This document shows positions 12,089-18,934 of a stretch of 36,867 nt of DNA, in pieces. Source of the stretch: an uncultured bacterium (GTDB lineage: Bacteria > Patescibacteriota > Minisyncoccia > Phycocordibacterales > Phycocordibacteraceae). The position numbers and the translations under genes were made by a program. Below the pieces are notes generated by a model. That model ran no database searches. It was not told where the DNA came from and saw nothing but the letters and a program-made list of their open reading frames with translations. The stretch lies in assembly GCA_963759775.1 (NCBI GenBank), contig CAVXAH010000002.1:1-36867 (forward strand). Reading direction: 5' to 3'. The stretch's first letter is position 1; each line of letters starts with the position of its first letter.

Positions 12089-12124
12089 GCCTTTATAGGC
12101 TTTAGATACGGCGTTTTTGTTTTG

Positions 12125-12207
12125 TGCTGGGGAGAGGACTCGAACCTCCAATGGGTTGCCCCGTCAGCTCCTAAGGCTGATGCGTCTACCAATTTCGCCA
12201 CCCCAGC
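12125..12207 (-). tRNA. tRNA-Leu(TAG), CCA not encoded
   Basis: GCTGGGG acceptor stem, TCAGC-CTTAGGA-GCTGA anticodon arm, long variable arm, GTTCGAGTC. Confidence 0.95.
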
Positions 12208-12240
12208 AATATGCAAACTATAACAACCAATACCGTTTTG

Positions 12241-12313
12241 TGCGCCTACCTGGGCTCGAACCAGGGACCTTATCCTTAAGAGGGATCTGCTCTACCAACT
12301 GAGCTATAGGCGC
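12241..12313 (-). tRNA. tRNA-Lys(CTT), CCA not encoded
   Basis: GCGCCTA acceptor stem, AGCTCAGTTGGTAGAGC D-arm, anticodon loop CTCTTAA, GGTTCGAGCC. Confidence 0.95.
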
Positions 12314-12343
12314 AATGTTTCAAACTTTACACGATGACCGGTT

Positions 12344-13486
12344 TTATTCAACGACTCGCCGTAGGTGCGGAGGAACGTGTACAAGCACATCGTAGGGAAT
12401 GCGGCCAGTTTGAGTGGCAATAGAGCGCACGGAATTTATCGCGTTTGGGTCGCGACTTATGACGATGACCGTATCTCCGGGTTTCGTTTCTGGAATATCA
12501 GTAACATCAAGACTCGTCATGTTCATAGAAACGCGTCCGGCAATTGGCGCGGCTTTTCCACGAACCAACATGCTTCCCGTATTGGAAAGTCGGCGATCAA
12601 TACCCTCAAAATAGCCGGTGGGGAGCGTTGCGACCTTTGTGGGGCGTAGGGCGGTAAAGGTGGCGTTGTAGCCGACATGTTCACCAAGCGGCACATCGCG
12701 AACCGAGCTTACGATAGTTCTAAGTTCAAGAACAGGTTTAAGCGAGACCTTACTTTCTGGGGAAGTATCAAGACCGTAAAGTCCGATACCAAGACGCGCT
12801 ACGCGTGCACCCGTCTCATTTCCAAATCGCACTCCTTTGGTTGCGGCAAAATGTGTGTGAGTGATGTCGGGAAAGGCGGTGAGCACTTGTGGCGCCATCT
12901 CGTTCCACAACGCGCGCTGCCCGTCGGTAAGCGGAGAGATTTTAGAATCAGCATCTCCCATGTGCGAACAAAGTCCTACAATGCGTATGAAGGGGTGATG
13001 CTTGAACATGTGTATGACTTCCGCAAGATCACCCTTCGTTATGCCGTGGCGATGCATGCCGGTATCAAGTTTCAAGTGAAGCTCAATTGGTTTTCGAGCT
13101 CCTTTCGCAAGCGCACGCGCTTGTTCAATATCAACCAGAGTGAATGCGGTATTTTTGAGGCGGTTTCTTACAATGTCTTCAGGGCGCACATACCCCATCA
13201 CGAGAATGGGCGAGTGCACGTCGTAAGCACGAAGTTGTCGCGCTTCGTAATATGAATCAACGACAAAGAATGCGATTTTTTCATGGTCGAGAATAGTTGC
13301 GACCTCCGTAAGCCCATGCCCGTATGCATTGCTTTTCAATACGGGCGCAAAGGAAAGAGAAGGGAATTCGTGCTGGTATGTATGTAAGTTGTGAAGAAGG
13401 TTCTCGCGCGAGATAGACACCTCAACCAGAGGAACCGTGCGATCAAACGATTTTCGTAGCGCGCGTAAGTAAGAGAAAAGTTTCAT
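12344..13486 (-). CDS. alr: Alanine racemase
   Basis: VLKSNAYGHG PLP lysine motif, HLKLDTGMHRHG, VGYNATF, GRVSMN. Confidence 0.95.
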   Translation of the reverse strand: MKLFSYLRALRKSFDRTVPLVEVSISRENLLHNLHTYQHEFPSLSFAPVLKSNAYGHGLTEVATILDHEKIAFFVVDSYYEARQLRAYDVHSPILVMGYVRPEDIVRNRLKNTAFTLVDIEQARALAKGARKPIELHLKLDTGMHRHGITKGDLAEVIHMFKHHPFIRIVGLCSHMGDADSKISPLTDGQRALWNEMAPQVLTAFPDITHTHFAATKGVRFGNETGARVARLGIGLYGLDTSPESKVSLKPVLELRTIVSSVRDVPLGEHVGYNATFTALRPTKVATLPTGYFEGIDRRLSNTGSMLVRGKAAPIAGRVSMNMTSLDVTDIPETKPGDTVIVISRDPNAINSVRSIATQTGRIPYDVLVHVPPHLRRVVE

Positions 13487-13489
13487 TTT

Positions 13490-13645
13490 GGTACAGGTAT
13501 ATTACTCCGCTCGAACCTATTTTACCCGAAACCCGAACCCTTAACTCGCGCCTCGCAGACTCGGCGCTCGCCCGAGCCCTGTCCGCACTTTTCTTTTTTG
13601 TTTTTCGTGGGGGGGGGTGAATGCAATGCAAGTGGAGCGGCAGGG
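13490..13645 (+). repeat. attL element arm (arm A, 156 bp); exact inverted copy at 15920-16075
   Basis: Base-by-base reverse-complement match including the G9/C9 run. Confidence 0.95.
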
Positions 13646-13785
13646 CTCGGGGAACGGCTCAGTTTCTTCCCTAAATGGCTCACATGGGAAGAAATGAGCC
13701 GTTCCATGCAAATGCGTATTTGTGGTCTCTGGGCTGTTTTAGCCGCTTTGTGGAGTTGTCCGGTGCTCAGGCATCTCACCCCTCG

Positions 13786-14098
13786 GCATCCGCCTCGGGG
13801 CTGTTTCCGCTAGGGCTACGAACGCCTAGGTTCGTTAGTGCCGCCTTATCCTCGCACTCCCACACTGCTGTGTGGGAGCTCGGGGCGGCTCTTGTTTGGG
13901 GGAAGGAAGGAATCCTTCCCCCAGCTCGGGACTCCTCCTCGTGCCTTCGGAGTCCGCCCCTCGCACAACCCCCATCCACGTTTGCATGTTTAGAGTGTGT
14001 GGTGTCGCCTCCGCTTCAAACCCGTTTCTGCTAGCTGACCACGGCGTTCGTCCTTTCGCACTGGACGCTCCTAGCGGAAACAGCCCCGAGGCAAATGC
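13786..14098. other. Highly structured non-coding segment (candidate ssDNA origin or ncRNA)
   Basis: Perfect 23-bp closing stem (13792-13814/14070-14092), inner 9-bp stem (13818-13826/14043-14051), hairpins at 13857-13878 and 13898-13922. Confidence 0.6.
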
Positions 14099-14303
14099 AT
14101 AATGCTTGCCCCAGAGTTTGCGTGAGGACACGCAAACTCTTTCCCGCCCGTGCGCGCATGCACCGCCTGATGGCGGCTCCCTTTACAGAAAATACACAAA
14201 GAGCATACTTGGCAATGACTCCCTGGAATATGGGTACACCATCGTCGATTGATGGAAAACTGCCTGAACAAGGCGTCAAAATTACCAAACAGTTTCGAAG
14301 CAT

Positions 14304-14480
14304 ATGGAAAGCAAAGTAAAAGGCGTACTGCCTGCTCCAGCACACCTTGCTGAGTGTGTACGAGGTCTAGCAAATCTGACTTCGACAGTAAAACCGCTTA
14401 TTGAAATAACACACAGTACCGTCATTCCAGAAAAATCAGAAAAGCAAATTTCATCGGAATCTGGAAGATCTTCAATCTGA
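14304..14480 (+). CDS. Possible 58-aa small protein (MESKVKGVLPAPAHLAECVRGL...)
   Basis: Open frame followed by a terminator-like hairpin at about 14493-14530; no homology recognised. Confidence 0.3.
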   Translation: MESKVKGVLPAPAHLAECVRGLANLTSTVKPLIEITHSTVIPEKSEKQISSESGRSSI

Positions 14481-14574
14481 TCGCTAAAGAACAAACACAA
14501 AAGGCACCGATTGGTGTCTTTTATGTTTTATCAACTAACTTCTCACGTCTTATTCCGTTAAGGCGACTTAAAAT

Positions 14575-15881
14575 CTAGTAGTTCAAATTGAACACTCGGT
14601 TCGCATTCAGTATCCTACCCAAGTTATCGTACTTACCTATTTGTACGGCAGAGGGAATACCCATGTAACAATCTCTGTCTGGATCTAGTGCAACGCCTCC
14701 CGAATTACCGGCCTCAATTTTTGCAGAGGTTGTGTAGTAAGGATCAGCGTATCCCGAAACTATCCCTTGTGTTGCAGTTGGTTGAGTAAAATTACCTGCA
14801 TAATCAGGGTATCCGAGCACTATTACGTTATCGCCTGTACGCGCTTGTGTCTCACAAATCGACAGATTCTTTCCTGCAACGCTAGTAAAATACGTGCTGC
14901 CGTTTGCAACAGGCAAAACTCCCCAGTCATACTCGGGGTTTATTTTTGTGTCACTACCATTTACTACATACGTGTTATTTCCATCTCCAGGGATTCCAAC
15001 GGCACATTCTGTAGCACCATATCCAGCCATATCAGTAATAACGTGCCTGTTTGTTATAACTACTATTGATGAGTCGTTAGAAAACCTCGTGACAAAACCA
15101 GAGCCAAAACCAAAGCTTCTATCTGAAAACTGGCACACAATAAGCGCAACGCTAGGGCTCCATTTCTGAATAACTGCAGGGAGTCCATTTTTTTGAGGAG
15201 GGTTTGTACGATCTTTTTGCATTGCTGCGAGTTGCTTTTTCAGACTCTCAATTTCTGCTTGCGTAAAGTCTGAAGCGGAGTTGTCTTCAACTATTTGGTT
15301 TTGGTTCGAAGATGAGAAGATTAAGGAATTTAGAAAAGAGTCCTCCAATCGTTTATCTTCGTTTCCCAAATAAAAACTATAGCCAAGCTGGTATAAATCG
15401 CTGCCTTTTACAATATCCCTCCCAAGATAGCAAACCTGCGCGTCGTTATTACACATAAGATAATCGATCGCGGGTAAACCCTTATATTTGGTCGGATTTG
15501 AGGAAATCAATCCATTAAAGCCCGCAAAGTCTTCTTGACTTGATGTGTACAGCAATTCATTTTTCAAGTTTTCTTCAGGGGTCAATCTTCGAGTTTGAAA
15601 ACGCAGAGCTTACATAAGCAGCAGAGAGAACGTATTTGTTGTCAGGATCATCATAACGGTAATTGTAACGCAGTGACATTATTTCCTTTGCCAAGTTCTT
15701 GATCTCTGACTGAGAGAATTGGTTGTCCTGGGAAAAGCATAGAGAAGTCACCATGTTCCATGTAATGGCCTTCTTGTTTGTGAGGTAGAAGATAAACTCC
15801 AACTCCAGCCAATACCAACAACAAAACAATAACCACTGGGTTATTGAAGTAGTTCAGGTTATTTTCTTGATTTTTTGCCAT
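14575..15881 (-). pseudogene. Membrane-anchored trypsin-like serine protease, split by two +1 frameshifts
   Basis: ORFs 15651-15881 (TM anchor), 15575-15829 and 14575-15585 (TNRHV, DWGVL, AGNSGG triad) overlap in successive frames. Confidence 0.65.
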
Positions 15882-15919
15882 GAATTTTTCTTAAGCCCAT
15901 TATAACTCCTAAACCCTCA

Positions 15920-16161
15920 CCCTGCCGCTCCACTTGCATTGCATTCACCCCCCCCCACGAAAAACAAAAAAGAAAAGTGCGGACAGGGCTCGGGCGAGCG
16001 CCGAGTCTGCGAGGCGCGAGTTAAGGGTTCGGGTTTCGGGTAAAATAGGTTCGAGCGGAGTAATATACCTGTACCCAGACAGATACTGAATCGGAATTTC
16101 CGGAATTTTCCCGCGCGGCGGCTACCGCCGCGTATAGAGGGTGCGCCGTGCCGGAGACTTT
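15920..16161 (-). repeat. Internal inverted copy of the reconstituted attP (arm B + GGTAC + arm A)
   Basis: 16071-16161 is the reverse complement of 18758-18848 (1 mismatch); 15920-16075 is the reverse complement of 13490-13645; degenerate similarity continues to about 16237. Confidence 0.92.
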
Positions 16162-16455
16162 AGTTCGAGAATACAAATACAAGCCCGAAGATTTTTTGAA
16201 GAAAAGAGAAGCGAATTTTTTGGCGGGGAGAGAGGGGAGTACCAAGAAGCCCAGAATGCTCGTGGTGTGCTTGCCCCTCCCGCCCGTGCGCGCACCTACT
16301 CCTTCGCTGGCGGGTCTGAAACCAGCGAAGCTCCCTTTTTGTTTTCTGATATAATTTAGGAGATCTAATATGATTTCCAAGACGTCATTGATATCTAAAT
16401 CGTCGAAATTACTGCTTTGCGCGGAAATTTTTGTTGCGTTTTCGTTGACTACTAC

Positions 16456-16504
16456 ACTGGATGAAGCTAAAATGCCGTTGAACGGCATTTTAGCTTCATC
16501 CAGT
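16456..16504. repeat. Perfect 49-bp palindrome (24-bp arms, 1-nt centre)
   Basis: ACTGGATGAAGCTAAAATGCCGTT-G-AACGGCATTTTAGCTTCATCCAGT. Confidence 0.95.
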
Positions 16505-16594
16505 TCTCCATTCTGATTTAATGGCTTAAATTAAGGATAATATGATAGTTGGGGAAATCATTGATTTTTCAGGTAGAAATTGCTAGTGTAGACG

Positions 16595-16669
16595 TAACAA
16601 GGGAGCTAATTGGAAGTCTTGTAAATAAAGGAGCGTGTCCTAGGTCTAGGGCCCGCTCCTTTGTTTTTT
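16595..16669 (+). ncRNA. Candidate small RNA convergent with the DUF3800 gene
   Basis: Promoter TTGATT(16561)-17-TAGTGT with extended TG; hairpin ACAAG/CTTGT (16597-16622); terminator AAAGGAGCG/CGCTCCTTT plus T-run. Confidence 0.45.
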
Positions 16670-17342
16670 ACCAAATTTTGTGGAGATATTTTTTGTCTAT
16701 CACTTTTCTTAAATCTTTGTTCTTACCAGTGAAATAGTCCTTCATCGCTCCGCTCACCAAGTCAGATAGCTGCATCGCATTTACATACTCCGAATCTACA
16801 TGGGTAATGTGTTTTATTCGTTTTATCGTCTTTCTATTAACGCGGTCAAAAAGATACTGATCAAATGCCGTGAAATAATCACCGTTCCACATCCGACGAT
16901 CGGCGCGGTCAATTACAACCTCTGCGCCCAAGAGGTTTTGTTTCTGCGCCGTAAATAGAACTAATTTCGACAAATTATAGTCGTCAAAAATGTTGTGCAA
17001 CTGAGTGTGTCCAGAAACAGCAAATTTGCCCTTGTATGTAGTTTTGTCGACGAGTCGATAATAAATAGGAATTTCCAGCTTATTTATGATCGCCAAGAGA
17101 TCCATATACATTGGTAACGGAATAAGGGTTGATTTTATTTCGCTTCTAAAACCGTATTTATGGCGTATCTCCATAATCTCGTTTTCGAGCGCAAATAGCT
17201 TTGTTGAATCAAGATAGACCGCTGACAGTATGTAAAACAAACTTGCTCCAGTTGGAATTTTGTTTCCAGACGCGTCAATTTCAAATGGCTTGCCCGGATC
17301 ACCCGACTCATCTACAAAAATGTAATGCTGGATATTAGCCAT
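16668..17342 (-). CDS. DUF3800 domain protein (RNase H-like fold)
   Basis: N-terminal YIFVDESG and C-terminal VDS...MQLSDLVSG signatures. Confidence 0.8.
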   Translation of the reverse strand: MANIQHYIFVDESGDPGKPFEIDASGNKIPTGASLFYILSAVYLDSTKLFALENEIMEIRHKYGFRSEIKSTLIPLPMYMDLLAIINKLEIPIYYRLVDKTTYKGKFAVSGHTQLHNIFDDYNLSKLVLFTAQKQNLLGAEVVIDRADRRMWNGDYFTAFDQYLFDRVNRKTIKRIKHITHVDSEYVNAMQLSDLVSGAMKDYFTGKNKDLRKVIDKKYLHKIW

Positions 17343-17386
17343 AAGTTAGAGCGGGTTTTTGGTCACGTCGATATATAATACAACTT

Positions 17387-18874
17387 ATGCAGTACTTCCT
17401 CTACGCCCGTAAAAGCACTGATGTCGAGGACAAACAAGTTCTCTCCATCGAAGCTCAACTTACCGAACTTCGCGCGCTCGCAGGGCGCGAACAACTCAAC
17501 GTCGTTGAGGTATTCATCGAAAAACAAAGCGCGAAGAAGCCGGGTCGTCCCGTGTTTAACGAAATGATGGCACGTATACAAAAAGGCGAAGCGCAGGGAA
17601 TCGTATGCTGGAAAATTGACCGTCTCGCGCGAAACCCTGTGGATGGCGGACAAGTCCAGTGGCTTCTTCAAAACAGCACCATTCGTCATATCCAAACCCA
17701 CGATCGCTCGTATTATCCAACCGACAACGTGCTTATGATGTCCGTCGAGCTTGGGATGGCGAATCAGTATATCCGCGATTTAAGTGTAAACACTGCACGG
17801 GGACTCCGTGCTAAGGCGCGGGAAGGGCATTTCCCCGGTACTGCGCCCTTTGGATACCGCAACAACAAGCACAAGAAGGTCATTGAGCTAGACCGCAAGA
17901 AATCAAAGGTCGTTCGCGCCGCATTTGTGCGCTATGCAAAAGGCGAATCGAGACTTGAAGATATTTCGCGTTTTCTATATGACAGCGGCGTCCGCAGTTT
18001 CGGCGGAAAACATCTCACCAAAAACCGCACCAAGTTCATCCTCCAAAATCCATTTTATTACGGCCAGTTCCTCTATGCTGGCGAACTCTATAACGGCCGT
18101 CACACGCCACTCATTTCCAAAGCTCTCTTCGACAAAGTACAGACGGTTCTACTGACCCGGAGCCACCCAAGCAAAGCAAAAACCGAGCCGCAAGTCTTTT
18201 GCGGTCTCATGTCTTGCGGCGAGTGCGGCATGGGTATCACCGCCGAGAAGCAGAAAGGCCATGTGTACTATCGCTGTACCAAAAAATCGTCGGCTCCGTG
18301 TTTCCAGCGCTATACGCGCGAAGAAACACTCGCCTCCGATTTTTCAGAGTTGATTTCCATGTTTGTCCTGCCCACAAAATGGGCACAGGACTTTCGCCGC
18401 AGGGCAGAAGAAGATGCAAAAGACACCGAGCGCGTCACAAGCGGCGCGGTTGCTGCCCTCCGCGATCAAATACGCGATCTCAACACCAAGCTCGATCGCC
18501 TTACCGATCTCTACATCGCCCAAGATATCGAGCGCGACGCATACTTAACGAAGCGTCGCGCACTCACATCCGACAAGCGTACGCTTGAAGAACAAATCCT
18601 CACTCTACAGAAAGACGGCGGAGCTTGGCTCGAACCCATGCGCGCGTGGATAAACCACGCGGAAATGCTAGAGAAAATCCAAAAAGACCCCTCTCTCCCC
18701 GCCAAAAAATCCGCCCTTCAAAAAATCTTCGGCTCGAACCTGAAACTCCAAAACCAAAAAGTCTCTGGCACGGCGCACCCTCTATACGCGGCGGTAGCCG
18801 CCGCGCGGGAAAATTCCGGAAATTCCGATTCAGTATCTGTCTGGGTACCAGGGGTGAGACTCGAACTCACATGA
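17387..18874 (+). CDS. Large serine recombinase (resolvase, recombinase, Zn-ribbon and coiled-coil domains)
   Basis: YARKS catalytic Ser, KIDRLARN, APFGY, NPFYYG, HTPLIS, CGECG...YYRC; the last codons are read antisense through tRNA-Leu. Confidence 0.95.
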   Translation: MQYFLYARKSTDVEDKQVLSIEAQLTELRALAGREQLNVVEVFIEKQSAKKPGRPVFNEMMARIQKGEAQGIVCWKIDRLARNPVDGGQVQWLLQNSTIRHIQTHDRSYYPTDNVLMMSVELGMANQYIRDLSVNTARGLRAKAREGHFPGTAPFGYRNNKHKKVIELDRKKSKVVRAAFVRYAKGESRLEDISRFLYDSGVRSFGGKHLTKNRTKFILQNPFYYGQFLYAGELYNGRHTPLISKALFDKVQTVLLTRSHPSKAKTEPQVFCGLMSCGECGMGITAEKQKGHVYYRCTKKSSAPCFQRYTREETLASDFSELISMFVLPTKWAQDFRRRAEEDAKDTERVTSGAVAALRDQIRDLNTKLDRLTDLYIAQDIERDAYLTKRRALTSDKRTLEEQILTLQKDGGAWLEPMRAWINHAEMLEKIQKDPSLPAKKSALQKIFGSNLKLQNQKVSGTAHPLYAAVAAARENSGNSDSVSVWVPGVRLELT

Positions 18875-18934
18875 GGATTTTAAAGGCCTCCGAAGGTTTT
18901 AAGCCTCCTACGTCTACCATTCCGTCACCCTGGC
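18846..18934 (-). tRNA. tRNA-Leu(TAA); integration target, now followed by CCC instead of CCA
   Basis: GCCAGGG/CCCTGGT acceptor stem, GGAGG-CTTAAAA-CCTTC anticodon arm, long variable arm. Confidence 0.93.

Follow-up and report, generated by a model that had tools for sequence, protein, structure and literature searches.

An inverted internal attP in a tRNA-inserting large serine recombinase element and its relatives in Patescibacteria

Serine integrases are textbook enzymes of one attP and one attB, and major tools of genome engineering. The stretch of DNA analysed here, which we call the window, is one entire contig (36,867 bp) of a two-contig Patescibacteria genome of 631,659 bp. Positions 13490-18848 hold a 5.36-kb large serine recombinase (LSR) element, inserted into the 3′ end of a tRNA-Leu(taa) gene, and in its interior lies an inverted and intact copy of its own attP. 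An original prediction, made from the sequence alone, had reported the inner copy and proposed either that the repeats let both halves of the element flip, or that the attP copies anneal on a single strand into a panhandle that is integrated directly. The observation stands, whereas flipping and panhandle integration were not borne out. The element very probably belongs to a widespread family of small tRNA-inserting Patescibacteria elements with one LSR, no conserved partner protein and a fixed layout, and we tentatively suggest that the inner copy serves as a splint on imported single-stranded DNA.

The element and its inner attachment site

The sites, arms and recombinase of the element, together with its target, are as follows.

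13490-13494, plus strand: attL core GGTAC (junction b/A), from the sequence; the same as at the inner site and attR
13490-13645, plus strand: outer arm A, the P′ half-site with a T-arm-like TCGAAC, then a hairpin, T-run and G-run segment (inverted repeat)
15920-16075, minus strand: inner arm A, inverted copy (repeat pair with outer arm A)
16071-16161, minus strand: inner arm B, which copies the LSR 3′ end in inverted form, with a decayed extension to 16237
17387-18874, plus strand: large serine recombinase, 495 residues (Pfam Resolvase, Recombinase, Zn_ribbon_recom)
18758-18848, plus strand: outer arm B, the P half-site, which is the LSR 3′ coding end; attR core GGTAC at 18844-18848
18844-18934, minus strand: target tRNA-Leu(taa), its 3′ end completed by the core (ARAGORN; Rfam tRNA)

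A repeat search returned two pairs of inverted arms. The A pair (13490-13645 against 15920-16075) is 156 nt long and 100% complementary, and a perfect inverted repeat of this length is far above chance expectation. The B pair (16071-16161 against 18758-18848) extends over 91 nt at 99% identity. The inner copies of A and B overlap by 5 nt, 16071-16075, which are the GGTAC core, and together (15920-16075 plus 16071-16161) they make up an intact inverted attP. Beyond arm B the similarity decays; 16211-16237 still matches 18688-18714 at 96% over 27 nt, and the complete B alignment including this decayed extension runs to 174 nt at 86%. Both arm pairs, the fused core and the extension were thus recovered where the original prediction had placed them. 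By tblastn, 16069-16236 matches residues 435-488 of the LSR at 76%. Copies of the arms were absent from the rest of the 631,659-bp, two-contig genome.

The three sites fit together. attL reads TTTTGGTAC followed directly by AGGTAT, and attR reads TCTGGGTAC followed by CAGGGG. On the minus strand the inner site reads TCTGGGTAC followed by AGGTAT, which is the precise joint that excision would create. At its right end the element adjoins the 3′ terminus of the tRNA-Leu(taa) gene, which is complete, and at its left end the start codon of an alanine racemase gene is 3 nt away. With attL, attR, the inner joint and an intact tRNA-Leu all in place, the locus is a site-specific integrative element in a tRNA gene. 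The enzyme has the catalytic resolvase domain (PF00239, E = 1.1e-21, residues 4-147), the Recombinase domain (PF07508, E = 1.4e-12) and the zinc ribbon (PF13408, E = 8.8e-07) that together make an LSR, in agreement with the earlier call of an LSR element with an intact inverted attP copy. Its translation contains a YARKS motif with Ser10, which we take to be the serine nucleophile. The LSR reading frame runs over the crossover point into the antisense strand of the tRNA.

All tRNA-Leu(taa) genes called with ARAGORN among 19 loci of relatives (L173-L191) have a mostly T-rich stretch followed by GTACC or GTGCC at their 3′ end. A tblastn search of the loci with such a gene gave no match to the LSR or to the alanine racemase, and their 3′ ends without an LSR agree with the predicted empty site. 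At several of these loci the tRNA-Leu(taa) gene is closely followed by tRNA-Lys(ctt) and tRNA-Leu(tag); in the window (12124-13486) the element and the alanine racemase gene intervene.

Recurrence and concerted evolution of the inner copy

LSR homologues were found in 112 of the 201 sampled genomes of the host family (E≤1e-30). The comparison, run with one uniform script and leaving out the window itself, covered wider genome loci, 54 metagenome loci and 21 named genome contigs, all of the latter labelled as Patescibacteria lineages, a few weak matches excepted. The counts given here come from assemblies of related organisms, and the samples are not independent. Across the family the recombinases have diverged to 34-43% identity. 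We found 78 recombinase copies, of which 66 include the 3′ end, and for 55 of these 66 at least 100 nt of downstream sequence was available. In 45 of the 55 the 3′ end of the recombinase gene adjoins a tRNA gene of the opposite strand; 18 isoacceptors are represented, and at least 18 different tRNA genes are targeted. Among the ten in which ARAGORN called no tRNA, four (L040, L046, L048, L105) show a tRNA-like T-arm by eye and L103 has a tRNA-Tyr; the others are G198:C63, G172:C18, L044, L128 and L199. No relative of the recombinase was present in the viral contigs searched.

The inner copy recurs with the recombinase. An inverted inner arm B is present in 50 of the 57 informative homologous LSR loci (43-73% amino acid identity), 80.9-100% identical to its partner (median 91%), and is missing in seven (L044, L091, L095, L122, L130, L135, L149). 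The entire A and B layout is seen in 18 loci, with A arms 82.5-100% identical (median 99%). It runs in the order attL, arm A, a first unique segment (U1) with cargo and often a structured non-coding region, inverted A fused to inverted B, a second unique segment (U2) with the recombinase and in some cases accessory genes, arm B, and attR beside the tRNA 3′ end. An inner B without an A was found in 32 loci. In 19 of these the contig ends at most 250 nt from the inner site, leaving A beyond reach, and these contigs probably broke at the repeat. The remaining 13 extend 1.7 kb or more leftwards from the inner site, with no outer A arm found over that distance; U1 is probably simply long in these loci, the alternative being a split or rearranged state. 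In two of the 13 (L037, L137) the contig begins within the non-coding region that normally follows the outer arm, and the scanned upstream genes in loci without an outer A are cargo-like. Distant LSRs of 34-39% identity (L158, L159, L205, L207, L208) show the same tight inverted pair around the gene.

The LSR is the sole protein cluster common to all ten complete elements compared, and at its smallest U2 is the LSR gene alone (L051, L052, L105, L158). A directionality factor was sought in the same ten elements and nothing but the LSR was common to them, such factors being small and diverse. Cargo in related elements includes a Tsp45I restriction enzyme, an HsdM methylase, T5orf172, methyltransferases and a DsbA-like protein (L132:4332-5198, L158:7077-8669, L153, L087), and the genes point away from the inner site.

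The original prediction had left room for a one-off relic and for an assembly or amplification chimera, and had suggested looking for an inverted attP copy in homologues. Recurrence in 50 of the 57 informative loci answers the latter in the affirmative and speaks against a relic. A chimera is almost certainly not the explanation: inverted joins are typical of multiple displacement amplification and many related contigs break at the inner site, but 50 independent loci, drawn from many assemblies with single-contig genomes among them, show this layout, the copies are often non-identical (80.9-100%), their paralogous extension has decayed and the copies co-evolve. Judged from these comparisons, the layout is conserved, ancestral and widely kept, neither an accident nor an artefact.

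The attachment sites themselves would suggest how so many targets are reached. The cores vary with the target (GGTAC, GGTG, TTGGAG, TGGTGA and GGGCTC among them), and the inner copy of each element has the corresponding core. At its start arm A imitates the tRNA T-arm, with a TCGAAC-like motif and then an A/T-rich run. Among 36 elements measured, this motif sits further from the crossover than the true tRNA T-arm motif by 4 nt in 27 and by 5 nt in 4. An offset between attP-type and attB-type half-sites is described for serine integrases, with the Listeria integrase as the example, in the available part of PMC3783163, and the 4-5 nt shift equals this rule for P-type against B-type half-sites, which argues that these are genuine integrase att sites. 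Mimicry of the T-arm would in turn allow one integrase family to colonise many tRNA genes, here at least 18. In the window the mimicry is seen between 13495-13530 on the element side and 18849-18875. Published abstracts give LSR sites of 40-50 bp, and the arms, at about 90 nt for B and 110-285 nt for A, are far longer, so that self-complementarity appears to count beyond site function alone.

We also considered whether U1 and U2 could be insertion sequence (IS)-like units with terminal inverted repeats, an idea suggested by the palindromic attB core of the window, GGTACC. We rejected it: most of the nine other cores (GGTG, TTGGAG, TGGTGA) have no palindromic dinucleotide, although GGGCT(C) has GC, and without one the IS-like joints could not be ligated. 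Nested or tandem integration, or inversion between two occupied tRNA genes, was likewise set aside, as on paper none of these gives an inverted intact attP.

The arms of one element resemble each other more than they resemble the arms of its relatives. In 99 pair comparisons of related elements, which are mutually non-independent, 1173 sites in B and 98 in A (1271 in total) were identical within an element and different between elements, and 60 sites in B and none in A followed the orthologous pattern. Identity between inner and outer B depends on the distance from the core, with 96-98% at 11-60 nt, 92-95% at 61-90 nt, 62-84% at 91-160 nt and approximately 50% beyond 160 nt, and in most of 47 ungapped pairs the first 60 nt of B are identical at 60 of 60 positions. 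Inner and outer A are 94-99% identical across 110 nt. The decay past arm B that had been noted for this element is a family-wide rule, and the window, with 91 nt and then decay, fits it.

Both halves of the element keep a fixed orientation. An inverted isomer was seen in none of the 50 loci with an inner copy, across at least 18 tRNA targets, the assemblies representing majority states from which minority forms may escape. The LSR 3′ end is the outer, tRNA-side copy in all 50, and the conserved non-coding region adjoins the outer left arm in 12 of the 12 complete elements that have it. The proposed flipping of both halves is at odds with these counts. With only one orientation seen, copying between the arms appears to be non-reciprocal, and there are no traces of flipping or of integration through the alternate attP. 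The pattern points to homogenisation of the copies by non-reciprocal copying, most strongly at the crossover. U1 and U2 do become reshuffled at the arms. L048 has the whole of U2 in common with L046 (3374 of 3374 nt) and nothing of U1 (0 nt), and with L049 it has 3211 of 4144 nt of U1 in common.

Several loci depart from the common layout. A 12.3-kb contig (G172:C18, L104 plus L106) carries the LSR, then the joined arms B.A and then the non-coding region, together with an inverted inner site, with both attP sites intact. It contains cargo-like open reading frames (ORFs) only, as judged from the ORF list with no family search, and no tRNA, and the G172 genome has no other arm copies and no attL or attR. 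This contig is possibly the joined form of the element, whether excised, episomal or tandem; it is not closed, and its arms are only 84-90% alike. Two recombinase-less loci beside a tRNA (L100:14400-19620, L101:4400-11330) keep A, U1 and inverted A at 96-98.5%, with U2 shrunk to a short perfect palindrome next to the tRNA. At L207:7760-9564 an LSR unit with inverted arms lies between two convergent tRNA-Ser genes, and its B arms supply both 3′ ends; this looks like the product of an inner attP recombining with a second tRNA site, that is, a chromosomal inversion. At G198:C63 (L097:1-1500) the LSR 3′ end runs into an intact hybrid B.A′ joint; beyond this come a unit of 963 nt, carrying inverted arms of 136 nt, and one more inverted joint. 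The order suggests that two elements stand in tandem and that sites have paired non-canonically. A tRNA-Ser element (L045, G088:C1:122500-136000) has 473-nt A arms around only 373 nt, and its outer end abuts an inverted arm copy that also lies by the neighbouring tRNA-Glu, the locus being rearranged or nested.

What the inner copy might do

As far as is known, plasmid monomers are inactive in natural transformation. The window's genome (G000) encodes ComEC, DprA, RecA and a Pol I with a 5′ nuclease domain, the dprA gene lying in the window as the original prediction had said. Natural competence is reported for Saccharibacteria in the available parts of PMC10187176 and PMC10633639, and the available text of PMC5615212 describes circularisation via duplicated regions as a known step and bottleneck of natural plasmid transformation. 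We propose, with a probability of roughly 0.35, that the inner inverted attP is the cis complement of the element ends and would act as a splint in imported single-stranded DNA, and not mainly as a second recombination substrate.

The host would import DNA through ComEC and DprA as a linear single strand. On this strand A would pair with inverted A and inverted B with B, and the two stems would stack on the continuous inner strand, so that the first base of A meets the last base of B at the shared core while the chromosomal flanks protrude as flaps. Trimming of the flaps, short repair synthesis by Pol I and ligation would then give a single-stranded circle that is exactly the excised element. 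The circle would close without an excisionase, and the donor would never need to excise. Second-strand synthesis would make the circle double-stranded, and the LSR would insert it into a tRNA gene by ordinary attP x attB recombination. The fold would also keep both flanks adjacent, which should make insertion by homologous recombination easier in close relatives. At each passage repair synthesis, with the inner copy as template, would overwrite the parts of the outer arms nearest the core, and the concerted evolution as well as the identity gradient would be explained in this way. The splint would cover the inverted exact joint, the long arms, the core-peaked non-reciprocal homogenisation and the missing excision and transfer genes in a host that takes up single-stranded DNA. 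The broader claim, that the family has replaced excision by self-splinting and built its life cycle around natural transformation with no need of an excisionase, relaxase or capsid, we hold to be doubtful.

A number of points weigh against the splint. Its single-strand intermediate is an unproven step. A double-stranded circle with two identical attP sites should integrate by either, and the alternative isomer was seen in 0 of 50 loci, so that the model needs an extra assumption to explain the exclusive isomer; it is possible that the LSR is delivered in cis to the attP at its own stop codon, or that the inner site is inactive through its decayed distal B part. RecA is present, and gene conversion or the repair of LSR breaks could explain the concerted evolution and its gradient with no single-strand stage. 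DprA, SSB and RecA coat incoming DNA and may block fold-back over kilobases, and a single fragment must span the entire element, from 5 to more than 14 kb. Some elements keep decayed inner copies (80.9-87%) in the long term, and their persistence means that loss of a copy would be slow even without function. Finally, on at least one occasion (L207) recombination seems to have joined the inner site to a second tRNA gene, and the site is hence also a live substrate.

If the single-strand stage is left out, the inner copy could be a frozen inverted duplication of attP, homogenised by RecA-dependent conversion or by repair of LSR breaks, with the B.A block kept as a gene-end, terminator and promoter module between the accessory genes of U2, which read leftward, and the U1 cargo operon. 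We regard this as somewhat unlikely. Besides the presence of RecA, the core-centred identity gradient would fit conversion tracts that start at recombinase breaks, U1 cargo genes read away from inner arm A in the window and in the inspected loci, the distal segment of arm A, a hairpin followed by a T-run and a G-run, is conserved across the family, and U1 and U2 reassort at the arms (L048/L046, L048/L049). Homologous recombination between inverted repeats should however also flip U1 and U2, and only one orientation is seen, even though inversion of U1 would be transcriptionally neutral, both arms being identical. Nor does a terminator or promoter module give a reason for keeping about 90 nt of LSR coding sequence and the exact core, and a promoter scan was at chance, with 6 sites against 6.8 expected. 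An intact chromosomal attP is moreover a liability, as L207 illustrates, and the fact that 50 of 57 loci have kept it implies that the site itself is under positive selection. Mismatch repair was considered as the homogeniser and dropped: a PF00488 search of G000, a genome that is 89.7% complete, gave no match to MutS.

The inner attP might also be active in recombination, with the circle using either site, U1 or U2 being inverted as a switch or for amplification of the 2-micron type, or the inner attP capturing further tRNA sites. Every element has an inner site that is complete, P-type in both halves and furnished with the correct core, the B arms at L207 complete both convergent tRNA-Ser 3′ ends, G198:C63 suggests a tandem array and non-canonical pairing, and the predicted circle is laid out like the 2-micron plasmid. 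We nevertheless consider a recombination-active second attP quite unlikely, since the same isomer is always found over at least 18 tRNA targets, with no alternatives in 50 loci, and the non-coding region lies by the outer arm in all 12 complete elements that have it. Capture of a second tRNA should also do harm, as it leads to chromosomal inversion or deletion, and serine integrases are reported, in the available text of PMC3783163, to recombine only attP x attB, or attL x attR with a directionality factor. The inner copy might instead be bound and not recombined, an LSR dimer on it relieving self-inhibition of attL and attR or regulating transcription of the cargo or the LSR. No conserved small protein that might act as a directionality factor was found (the LSR is the sole cluster in 10 of 10 elements), the minimal U2 is the LSR gene alone, and attL and attR enclose the inner site in all elements. 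To our knowledge no third-site role of this kind is known, and none was found in the available text of the literature searched. The idea is purely inferential, binding needs about 50 bp whereas 200-400 bp are kept identical, and an inverted orientation is not obviously needed; we judge a cis-acting binding site improbable.

The panhandle of the original prediction, in which the inverted attP copies anneal on a single strand and the LSR integrates the double-stranded stem into attB, shares its starting point with the splint. Within one strand the arms show perfect complementarity, ComEC and DprA are present in the host, and tyrosine recombinases do use folded single-strand sites, in CTX phage and at integron attC. 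Serine recombinases, on the other hand, cut both strands of both partners, four strands in all, and direct integration of single-stranded DNA conflicts with what would be expected of this double-strand chemistry. A stem closed by U1 and U2 loops and recombined with attB would, from the mechanism, give a linear chromosome with hairpin-capped ends that replicates into an inverted dimer. A naive recipient would moreover have no recombinase until the gene is double-stranded. We therefore consider direct panhandle integration very improbable.

The family resembles several known systems and differs from each of them. The yeast 2-micron plasmid has FLP/FRT inside 599-bp inverted repeats, uses a tyrosine recombinase, forms equimolar isomers, is never integrated and has its own origin and partition genes. 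The predicted circle would likewise consist of two unique halves split by inverted repeats, with the recombinase in one half and a non-coding region by a repeat; unlike the plasmid, the element has a serine enzyme, a single arrangement seen across the 50 assembled loci and no Rep-type domain in the 7 ORFs scanned, and it is not a 2-micron-type system. Hin, Gin and Cin belong to the small invertases, which depend on an enhancer and on Fis, and their populations contain both orientations. They too are serine recombinases encoded in or beside a segment flanked by inverted sites, but the enzyme here is an integrase type of 495 residues, the sites are attP and attR or attL, and one orientation is seen, so the element is not an invertase system of this kind. 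CTX phage attP and integron attC are folded single-strand sites of tyrosine recombinases, which exchange one strand pair. Intrastrand pairing that forms a site (here between the complementary 156-nt and 91-nt arms) and a link to single-stranded DNA entry are shared with these, whereas the only recombinase here is a serine recombinase, and the proposed fold would be a ligation splint and not a recombination substrate; for want of a tyrosine recombinase the element is not of the CTX or integron type.

The closest likeness of the enzyme is to phiC31, Bxb1, A118/LI and SPbeta, which have the same three-domain LSR, short attP and attB sites with a small shared core and an integrase gene that abuts attP, as well as, from the available part of PMC3783163, the same shift of the distal motif, 4-5 bp further out in P-type than in B-type sites. 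Elements of the phiC31 type have one attP and a separate directionality factor; here there is a second, inverted and intact attP and no conserved partner protein, the arms of 90-285 nt evolve in concert, and many tRNA 3′ ends are reached through T-arm mimicry. Two inverted attP sites of the phiC31 type also flank the segment in MiMIC and recombinase-mediated cassette exchange (RMCE) cassettes, which, as far as the available sources describe them, are artificial constructs without a natural function that require a donor carrying two attB sites. SGI1 tandem arrays and SCCmec composites likewise contain an intact att inside an integrated array (available text of PMC2297512). In such arrays this internal site is direct and between two complete elements, whereas here it is inverted and within one. 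Among the literature matches listed, so far as their available text goes, there was no natural LSR element with two inverted attP sites, only engineered cassettes and direct-orientation tandem islands, which accords with the original prediction, where no described element of this kind was known. Within the searched literature, taken at its available text, a family in which a second, inverted attP is maintained in concert with the element ends (50 loci, at least 18 tRNA targets) thus appears to be undescribed.

A true splint would illustrate the spread of mobile elements among bacteria dependent on DNA uptake, and of elements that themselves lack conjugation and phage genes. It would also suggest that integrase cargo could be delivered, by a simple design, in the form of linear single-stranded DNA. 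An inner site that controlled directionality, or that was active in recombination, would instead change the rules of site choice for these enzymes. In either case T-arm mimicry would account for hopping between tRNA genes, and the structured region described below would be a new candidate RNA or single-stranded DNA element.

The non-coding region and other features of the window

The remaining features of the element and its left flank are these.

12344-13486, minus strand: alanine racemase gene in the left flank (Pfam Ala_racemase_N, Ala_racemase_C)
13633-14165, strand undecided: conserved structured non-coding region (nucleotide conservation, consensus fold)
14499-14522, plus strand: hairpin resembling a terminator, with the non-coding region on one side and the convergent cargo operon on the other (consensus pattern match only)
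14575-15585, minus strand: cargo, a trypsin-like serine peptidase of 336 residues (Pfam Trypsin_2, E = 5.8e-13)
15575-15829, minus strand: cargo, an ORF of 84 residues, the first gene past inner arm A (no Pfam match)
16021-16488, minus strand: ORF of 155 residues, the last approximately 70 of which are the LSR C-terminal tail in its joined (attP) form (no Pfam match)
16456-16504, no strand: perfect palindrome of 24 plus 24 nt with a 1-nt spacer, in U2 (repeat search)
16668-17342, minus strand: DUF3800 protein of 224 residues, a U2 accessory gene (Pfam DUF3800, E = 2.1e-10)

The stretch 13646-14575 is GC-rich and has no credible ORF. The region at 13633-14165, adjoining the left arm, is conserved at 76-83% nucleotide identity in 32 of the 201 genomes, and this identity holds across elements whose LSRs share only 54-73% of residues. 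RNAalifold, applied to a 13-sequence alignment, gave 84 consensus pairs, of which 21 show compensatory changes. A long-range helix of 29 bp, pairing 13786-13814 with 14070-14098, closes a multi-hairpin domain and includes a compensating one-base deletion. The consensus energies are -117.5 for the plus and -125.8 for the minus strand, G.U pairs are few, and the region folds about equally well on both strands. No convincing Rfam match was found for 13633-14165, the one weak hit at E≤1 being mir-2209 at 13648-13711 with 22.7 bits against a gathering score of 70. A profile search recovered diverged full-length copies in further elements and none in L045, L046, L051, L052, L086, L125 and L136, so that the region is common and not universal. 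Its conservation and fold make it, we suggest, a new candidate for an RNA gene or for a single-strand DNA structure, a priming site for example, and it might be a single-strand origin.

Among the 7 ORFs scanned against Pfam we found no Rep, relaxase or excisionase-like domain, and the earlier statement that neither Rep nor relaxase is visible holds for this set. The consensus scan for promoter-like sites quoted above was no better than chance. At the gathering score Rfam returned six tRNAs only; at E≤1 it added sub-threshold matches to miRNA families, mainly on the palindrome at 16456-16504. This palindrome overlaps the start of the 155-residue ORF, which is probably a pseudo-ORF, and lies upstream of the DUF3800 gene end, the miRNA-family matches to it being spurious. 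A second, distant recombinase-like frame, with 30% identity to residues 141-326 of the LSR, was observed at the very start of the other contig of the genome (G000:C1:476-1069), and the assembly gap of G000 may sit in another such element.

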